Source: Escherichia coli (lineage in GTDB: Bacteria; Pseudomonadota; Gammaproteobacteria; Enterobacterales; Enterobacteriaceae). Taken from it: a stretch of 64,000 bases of DNA. The stretch lies in NCBI RefSeq assembly GCF_003334765.1, contig NZ_QOWT01000019.1; one strand, 5' to 3'. Below the pieces are notes generated by a model. That model saw only the letters and a list, made by a program, of their open reading frames with translations. It had not been told where the DNA came from and did no database searches. Below, one piece after another: positions 39,527 through 39,611 of the stretch (position 1 is the stretch's first letter; each line of letters begins with the position of its first letter). The translations under genes and the position numbers were made by a program.

Positions 39527-39611
39527 AAATCACCAACCAGTATAAAACACTATTTCCGTGAAAAAGACATGGCTAATCATGCGAACAAAAAATCACCAAC
39601 CGTTGTAAAAT
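39527..39611. repeat. Pair of ~22-bp direct repeats upstream of brnQ
   Basis: AAATCACCAACCAGTATAAAAC and AAATCACCAACCGTTGTAAAAT, ~63 bp start-to-start, in the 406-bp phoR-brnQ spacer. Confidence 0.5.

Follow-up and report, generated by a model that had tools for sequence, protein, structure and literature searches.

The DNA analysed here, referred to as the window (the whole stretch, 64 kb long), is a segment of the E. coli chromosome on which phoB, phoR, brnQ and proY are all encoded by the minus strand. The product of brnQ (37964-39283) is the low-affinity carrier of leucine, isoleucine and valine known as LIV-II. This gene is separated from phoR (39690-40985) by a 406-bp spacer (39284-39689), which is present as a single copy in 5425 of 5426 complete E. 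coli genomes and has no annotated feature beneath it. A dispersed element of the REP, ERIC or similar type was considered for this spacer and rejected, because megablast, which sees copies of at least 28 nt, found queries of 100 nt and 406 nt at a single location in each of 5424-5425 E. coli genomes. A permissive Rfam scan of 39000-40000 returned only a meaningless tmRNA fragment (E=0.57). The spacer includes the intrinsic terminator of phoR (39631..39664, minus strand), with a 10-bp stem and a T-run; the stem is kept across the alignment, and compensatory changes are visible in it. In E. coli strain MEW (L082, locus 627-900), an IS200C transposase gene adjoins the spacer and replaces the phoR end, and in Escherichia sp. 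MOD1-EC7003 (L004) a REP-like sequence, GCCGGATAAGGCGTTCACGCCGCATCCGGC, lies upstream of the phoR terminator.

Transcription of brnQ starts within the spacer. The map of Kim et al. (2012, PLoS Genet, supplementary file 2) reports one brnQ transcription start site (TSS), at position 418645 of NC_000913.2, with 54 reads and a 5' UTR of 170 nt. The published sequence from -50 to +1 is identical to positions 39503-39453 of the window, and the TSS is accordingly placed at 39453 on the minus strand. The hexamers of the sigma-70 core promoter (39461..39490, minus strand) were read from the sequence as a -35 element TTGCTT (39490-39485) and a -10 element TAAATT (39466-39461), separated by an 18-nt spacer. 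Conservation was assessed on 80 Enterobacteriaceae brnQ loci with 440 nt of upstream sequence aligned, and identities are given as means relative to E. coli over the other 79 species. By this measure, the identity of the whole spacer is 0.67 and that of the core promoter block (-56..-1) is 0.87, the latter being almost invariant in the 80 species. A simple sigma-70 scan of 39200-39800 returned no promoter, the mapped one scoring 8/12, under the scan threshold. A secondary promoter further upstream, built on a TATATA box at -65..-60, was rejected, as it has no usable -35 element and no TSS has been reported there.

The brnQ 5' UTR (39284..39452, minus strand) contains conserved blocks, two candidate hairpins and a CA-rich stretch. 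The first candidate hairpin pairs CGCGG (39427-39423) with CCGCG (39400-39396) around a nearly invariant loop, AAAUCGAAAAACUAUUCUUCG, and the second pairs GGGA (39388-39385) with UCCC (39379-39376). For these hand-proposed structures, 78% of the alignment cells are paired, compared with 41-59% in slid controls, and 13 cells carry double changes, compared with 6.8 ± 2.2, with compensatory changes across genera; the two predicted hairpins are thus moderately supported by covariation. RNAalifold returned no structure for the 5' UTR, and Rfam gave no hit. The CA-rich stretch, ACAACACCACATCCACAGGCAGTA (39313-39290, minus strand), is located directly 5' of the brnQ ATG and is invariant in 80 species. 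It fits a putative GcvB R1 seed target such as that reported for Salmonella brnQ, and in the GcvB literature brnQ is listed as a verified target in Salmonella, described as 'conserved' in E. coli. The same region carries a sigma-54-like sequence, TGGCAC-N5-TTTAA (39333-39318, minus strand), in which the GC of the -12 element is missing and which occurs in Escherichia only. Within array resolution of this sigma-54-like site, Shimada et al. (2021) report a SELEX peak of the RpoN holoenzyme (418,832, phoR>brnQ spacer). Finally, a 12-nt inverted repeat (39287-39298 and 39434-39445, 135 nt apart, 92% complementary) sets the start of the 5' UTR against the region preceding the ATG. It could form a long-range pairing that hides the ribosome-binding region, or it could be due to chance.

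Upstream of the promoter lies a pair of direct repeats. With the TSS at 39453, the proximal copy, AAGAAATCACCAACCAGTATAAAA (39524-39547, minus strand), extends from -71 to -94, and the distal copy, AAAAAATCACCAACCGTTGTAAAA (39587-39610, minus strand), from -134 to -157, that is, 244-328 nt upstream of the brnQ ATG. A repeat search aligned them at 20 of 24 positions, with a start-to-start distance of 63 bp, which corresponds to exactly 6.0 helical turns. Both contain the same exact 12-mer, AAATCACCAACC on the plus strand, at 39527-39538 (-74..-85) and 39590-39601 (-137..-148); as the genes are on the minus strand, this core reads GGTTGGTGATTT in gene orientation. The original prediction had described two repeats of about 22 bp at 39527-39611, and their sequences, coordinates and distances were reproduced, the 12/12 core included. 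Their placement in the long phoR-brnQ spacer upstream of brnQ likewise matches, with the gene strand corrected to minus. Since the repeats are located downstream of the phoR terminator and upstream of the brnQ TSS, they are absent from both mature transcripts.

When the spacer is Markov-shuffled, 1.2% of the shuffles contain an exact 12-mer direct repeat. Across the 64-kb window, four exact 12-mer pairs within 100 nt were seen where 0.43 were expected, and two pairs matching at 20/24 or better within 100 nt where 0.03 were expected. The repeat exceeds simple local chance, yet it is not extraordinary, given that the first-stage scan covered 64 kb. The second 20/24 direct repeat in the window, also exactly 63 nt apart, is formed by 17564-17587 (GAAAAGGCGCTGAGCGAGCTGGAA) and 17627-17650 (GAAGAGGCGCTGAACGAGTTCGAA), and is assumed to lie inside a coding sequence and to reflect a 21-residue protein repeat. 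No other intergenic copy of the 12-nt core is present in the 64-kb window, and two further copies with one mismatch (21014 and 21928) are both inside long ORFs. A comparison by eye with the consensus sequences of known operators (PhoB, TyrR, CRP, PurR, Cra, CpxR, TorR and Fur) gave no convincing match to the repeats. Two structural origins of the pair were also rejected. The first was a tandem duplication of a 63-bp module, as the similarity does not span the whole unit: outside the 24-mer the modules match at 9 of 39 positions at offset 63, no better than at other offsets. The second was a set of phased T-tracts behind the repeat, as the T-runs near -136, -110, -74 and -50 are spaced by 26, 36 and 24 bp and are out of phase.

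The region that surrounds the repeats contains a series of matches to the Lrp SELEX consensus yAGhAwATTwTdCTr (15 bp), a degenerate and AT-rich string that was confirmed in the literature. All coordinates below refer to the minus strand. The box centred at -61 (39507..39521, CGCTATATACCTCTG) matches at 10/15 in E. coli, that at -92 (39538..39552, TAGTGTTTTATACTG) at 13/15, or 12/15 on the other strand, and that at -124 (39570..39584, TCGCATGATTAGCCA) at 11/15 on the other strand. A weaker Lrp-like box is centred at -157 (39603..39617, CGTTAGATTTTACAA; 11/15). A weak match at -27 (39473-39487; 10/15) falls within the core promoter, and further matches are centred at -189 (10/15) and -221 (11/15). 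Matches of at least 13/15 are rare in the 64-kb window, with 12 strand-specific occurrences at 11 distinct positions, or 9e-5 per position and strand. Successive Lrp-like matches are spaced by 31-34 bp.

This regularity was quantified by a lattice score, defined as the mean best match on a lattice with a period of 30-34 bp and a jitter of ±1, maximised over period and phase. The region upstream of brnQ scores 10.86, with a peak at 32-32.5 bp, on a statistic that was set after the pattern had been noticed and whose period range follows known Lrp arrays. Markov shuffles gave 9.40 ± 0.34, none of 500 reaching the observed value, and column-permuted consensus sequences gave 9.63 ± 0.27, with a maximum of 10.43 and none of 400 reaching it. 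Among 2551 overlapping segments of the 64-kb window (mean 8.67, sd 0.39), the brnQ segments rank first, and the window segments that are more AT-rich than the brnQ upstream region score at most 10.0. The ilvIH region of K-12, used as a positive control, scores 10.17, and livK, oppA and lrp score 10.57, 9.83 and 9.83, respectively.

The positions of the boxes are also fixed across species. For this comparison the 80 species were anchored on the invariant core promoter, and the upstream alignment was not used. The box at -61 has a mean score of 12.0, reaches at least 10/15 in 99% of the species and is the local maximum at exactly this position in 79/80. The corresponding values are 11.24, 95% and 71/80 for the box at -92, and 10.46, 85% and 75/79 for that at -124. 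The box at -157 is diffuse among species, with a mean score of 9.0, at least 10/15 in 48% and a local maximum here in 34/79. The conserved columns fall on the AG...CT ends of the Lrp consensus. The cross-species consensus of the -61 box is.ag.ATAatc.TCTG, and its central bases look like a -10 hexamer, reading TATAAT in Citrobacter amalonaticus. The box at -124 lies inside a 24-nt segment, block A (TTTTTTGTTCGCATGATTAGCCAT; 39569..39592, minus strand, -139..-116), which is about 89% identical over 79 species, the value of 0.89 having been computed on -136..-116. Such conservation goes well beyond the requirements of a degenerate Lrp box, and block A may therefore be bound by another factor; it could be either the target of this second factor or a nucleation site of high affinity.

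These features have to be weighed against the possibility that the similarity of the repeats is a coincidence in a T-rich spacer, and that the boxes are bound by a factor other than Lrp or are promoter elements, such as an UP element or a secondary -10. The four exact 12-mer pairs counted in the window, the degeneracy of the Lrp consensus, the -10-like centre of the -61 box and the conservation of block A beyond that of a typical Lrp box are all in line with this explanation. It does not account well for a lattice score above every shuffle, every permuted consensus, every other window segment and the known Lrp arrays, for the overlap of the conserved columns with the AG...CT box ends, or for a 20/24 match expected 0.03 times per window. 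Published binding of Lrp within the spacer also speaks against it, and coincidence is considered fairly unlikely.

This binding was reported by Shimada et al. (2015, Microb Genom), whose Supplementary Table S1 contains 314 Lrp-binding sites from genomic SELEX-chip analysis, including an in vitro peak at 418534 in the phoR>brnQ (brnQ-proY) spacer. The peak corresponds to about -111, or window position ~39564, next to the repeat midpoint at 39567, at a resolution of ~100 bp, because the array consisted of 60-nt probes every 105 bp of K-12 W3110; this mapping assumes that W3110 and MG1655 version 2 coordinates are the same here, with which other peaks of the same group are consistent. The literature searched contained no report of in vivo Lrp ChIP at this site or of lrp- or leucine-dependent brnQ expression, and the supplements of Ziegler et al. 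(2023) do not mention brnQ. Lrp binding in the phoR-brnQ spacer is thus already published; the present analysis adds a map of the individual sites and assigns the repeat a lesser role.

This demotion follows from the evolutionary behaviour of the repeats. When the two copies are compared with each other, the E. coli strain of the window has 20/24 identities over the 24-mer and 12/12 over the core. Other Escherichia have 17-19/24 and 8-11/12, and Citrobacter (seven species listed, L005-L011) has 10-14/24 and 3-8/12. The mean over 74 non-Escherichia species is 8.2/24 and 4.4/12, where the 24-mer background at other offsets is 6.8 ± 2.2. The similarity therefore decays outside E. coli and reaches background in other genera; as the repeats are not conserved in close relatives, the reading of the repeat unit as an operator is not supported. 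Identity to E. coli is 0.46 for the proximal core and 0.67 for the distal core, with a spacer mean of 0.67. The identity of the distal core is carried by its T-rich 3' end, which merges into block A, and only that part is kept. By reading of the alignment, the proximal copy appears to have changed from TGATGATTT in other Escherichia to TGGTGATTT in E. coli, and the distal copy from GAT to GGT in part of E. coli only. The perfect 12/12 core would thus be the product of a few substitutions that occurred recently in the lineages of Escherichia and E. coli.

Variation within E. coli was examined in five RefSeq variants and 15 metagenomic contigs. The 12/12 core is found only in some E. coli, and in K-12 MG1655 the match is 11/12, owing to a G->A change at core position 2 of the distal copy (-147). 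Ten polymorphic sites occur in -172..+1 among the variants and contigs, and five of them are within the two cores, whose combined length is 14% of this interval (binomial P=0.007). Three of these E. coli sites belong to the proximal repeat, and the distal repeat is polymorphic at -147 (K-12) and -142. The conserved boxes are touched by one of the ten sites, a G->A change at an R position that retains the consensus class. In the strains compared, no part of the region is under less constraint than the cores. One substitution affects both copies: at core position 7 (39595 and 39532), an A->G change on the plus strand, T->C in gene orientation, occurs at the homologous site of each. It is found in the distal copy only in L101, in the proximal copy only in L094 and L082, and in both in L098 and L085. 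This parallel change may have arisen by recurrent mutation, by recombination or by gene conversion from one copy to the other.

Such data bear on the idea that the core GGTTGGTGATTT is a functional element specific to Escherichia, either as a pair of sites for a second regulator or as a linker that tunes Lrp cooperativity, with selection keeping the copies alike. A 24-mer similarity of 17-20/24 in all five Escherichia lineages, compared with 6.8 ± 2.2, counts in its favour, as do the position-7 change present in both copies of some strains, the spacing of exactly 6.0 helical turns, and the substitutions in both cores on the lineage to E. coli that, by reading of the alignment, brought the two cores closer to each other. 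This last argument is biased, however, by the selection of the pair for its similarity. Within E. coli, moreover, no part of the region varies more than the cores (5/10 sites; P=0.007), the K-12 reference strain has no perfect match, and conservation stops at the genus. With no other intergenic copy within the 64-kb window and no match to a known operator consensus in a comparison by eye, a functional core is judged distinctly unlikely.

The same polymorphism is relevant to a further explanation, according to which local DNA copying made the repeats or keeps them alike, by a 63-bp two-box duplication, short-patch gene conversion or template switching. It concerns the origin of the repeats and is therefore compatible with an array of Lrp boxes. 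The distribution of the identical position-7 change (distal only in one strain, proximal only in two, both in two) and the restriction of the similarity to one genus are consistent with copying, but haplotype recombination or recurrent mutation accounts equally for polymorphism common to both copies. Outside the 24-mer, the 9/39 matches are at chance level, so that duplication of a module is unsupported; each copy also resembles its own Citrobacter orthologue, and no wholesale replacement of a patch is visible. Local copying is thus considered unlikely. Even so, the 17-19/24 that Escherichia keep against a background of 6.8 ± 2.2, together with the converging substitutions, is more than pure neutrality predicts, in a pair that was chosen for its similarity. 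The genus-wide similarity and the position-7 polymorphism leave room, at low probability, for selection on the core or short-patch gene conversion. That the cores are Escherichia-specific paired sites kept alike by selection or ectopic gene conversion, rather than neutral linkers, is regarded as very unlikely. If this were true, the cores could indicate lineage-specific docking of a co-regulator beside the Lrp boxes, or, as the other possibility, concerted evolution of 12-bp repeats located 63 bp apart within a nucleoprotein array.

The region is an ordinary regulatory region, and the probable explanation, held with moderate confidence, is that it carries a phased array of Lrp boxes upstream of the brnQ sigma-70 promoter, of which the direct repeats are a by-product. 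Each repeat would then consist of the T-rich promoter-proximal part of an Lrp-like box (TTTTATACT or TTTTACAAC) together with the next linker. The flank of the proximal repeat (39538-39547) is the promoter-proximal part of the -92 box, and its core belongs to the linker leading to the -61 box. The distal core occupies the linker that joins the -157 and -124 boxes; the -157 box is offset by 2 nt from the register of the distal repeat, and the half-boxes in common therefore do not fully account for the similarity of the flanks. As the spacing of the array is constrained and 63 bp spans two of its periods, the copies keep their distance of 'six turns'. The 12-nt core common to both linkers would be under little or no constraint, and it is most probably not a recognition element.

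In the proposed mechanism, an Lrp octamer or hexadecamer would bind the boxes cooperatively and wrap the DNA. In poor medium Lrp would activate brnQ, and leucine would damp this effect, as at ilvIH; the sign of the regulation is the least certain step. Activation is likely given that the conserved boxes, ending at -54, are located upstream of a weak promoter with an 18-nt spacer. The weak box at -27 could be equally compatible with repression.

The suggestion of phased cooperative binding in the original prediction is thus partly supported: it fits the region, with boxes on a 32-bp lattice, positions fixed in 80 species and a repeat distance of two periods, and not for the repeated core as the recognition element, in view of its linker position, poor conservation and polymorphism. 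In the same way, Lrp, which had been named as a candidate, is the best-supported regulator, on the basis of the lattice and the in vitro SELEX peak between the repeats. No site-level account of the transcriptional control of brnQ was found in the literature searched. The map obtained here comprises a mapped promoter, three rigidly spaced and conserved Lrp-like boxes with weaker ones, and an in vitro Lrp peak above them. Informative targets for mutation are the AG...CT ends of the boxes and the lengths of the linkers, not the eye-catching repeat. In scale, the result refines the Lrp regulon modestly and does not introduce a new type of system.

Among known systems, the ilvIH promoter of E. coli is bound by an Lrp nucleoprotein array with six sites between about -260 and -40. 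As in the brnQ region, a sigma-70 promoter is preceded there by several degenerate Lrp boxes of 15 bp, at intervals of about three helical turns; both genes belong to branched-chain amino acid metabolism, and the lattice scores are 10.17 for ilvIH and 10.86 for brnQ. The brnQ array differs in that its best-conserved boxes are only three (-61, -92 and -124), known from sequence and in vitro SELEX, and in that block A shows almost no variation, which is atypical of Lrp sites. Operators of the PhoB, OmpR and PhoP type share with the brnQ region direct repeats that lie on the same side of the helix, and phoBR adjoins brnQ. Repeats of this type are conserved units of 6-7 bp, 10-11 bp apart, whereas the brnQ units are 63 bp apart, are not conserved and, by eye, are unlike a Pho box. 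The liv genes have in common with brnQ the uptake of leucine, isoleucine and valine, and the lattice score upstream of livK is high (10.57). Both liv and brnQ are listed as Lrp SELEX targets (Shimada et al., 2015). According to the cited literature, the liv genes are repressed by Lrp with leucine, whereas at brnQ the strongly conserved boxes are located upstream of -54, an arrangement that suggests activation.
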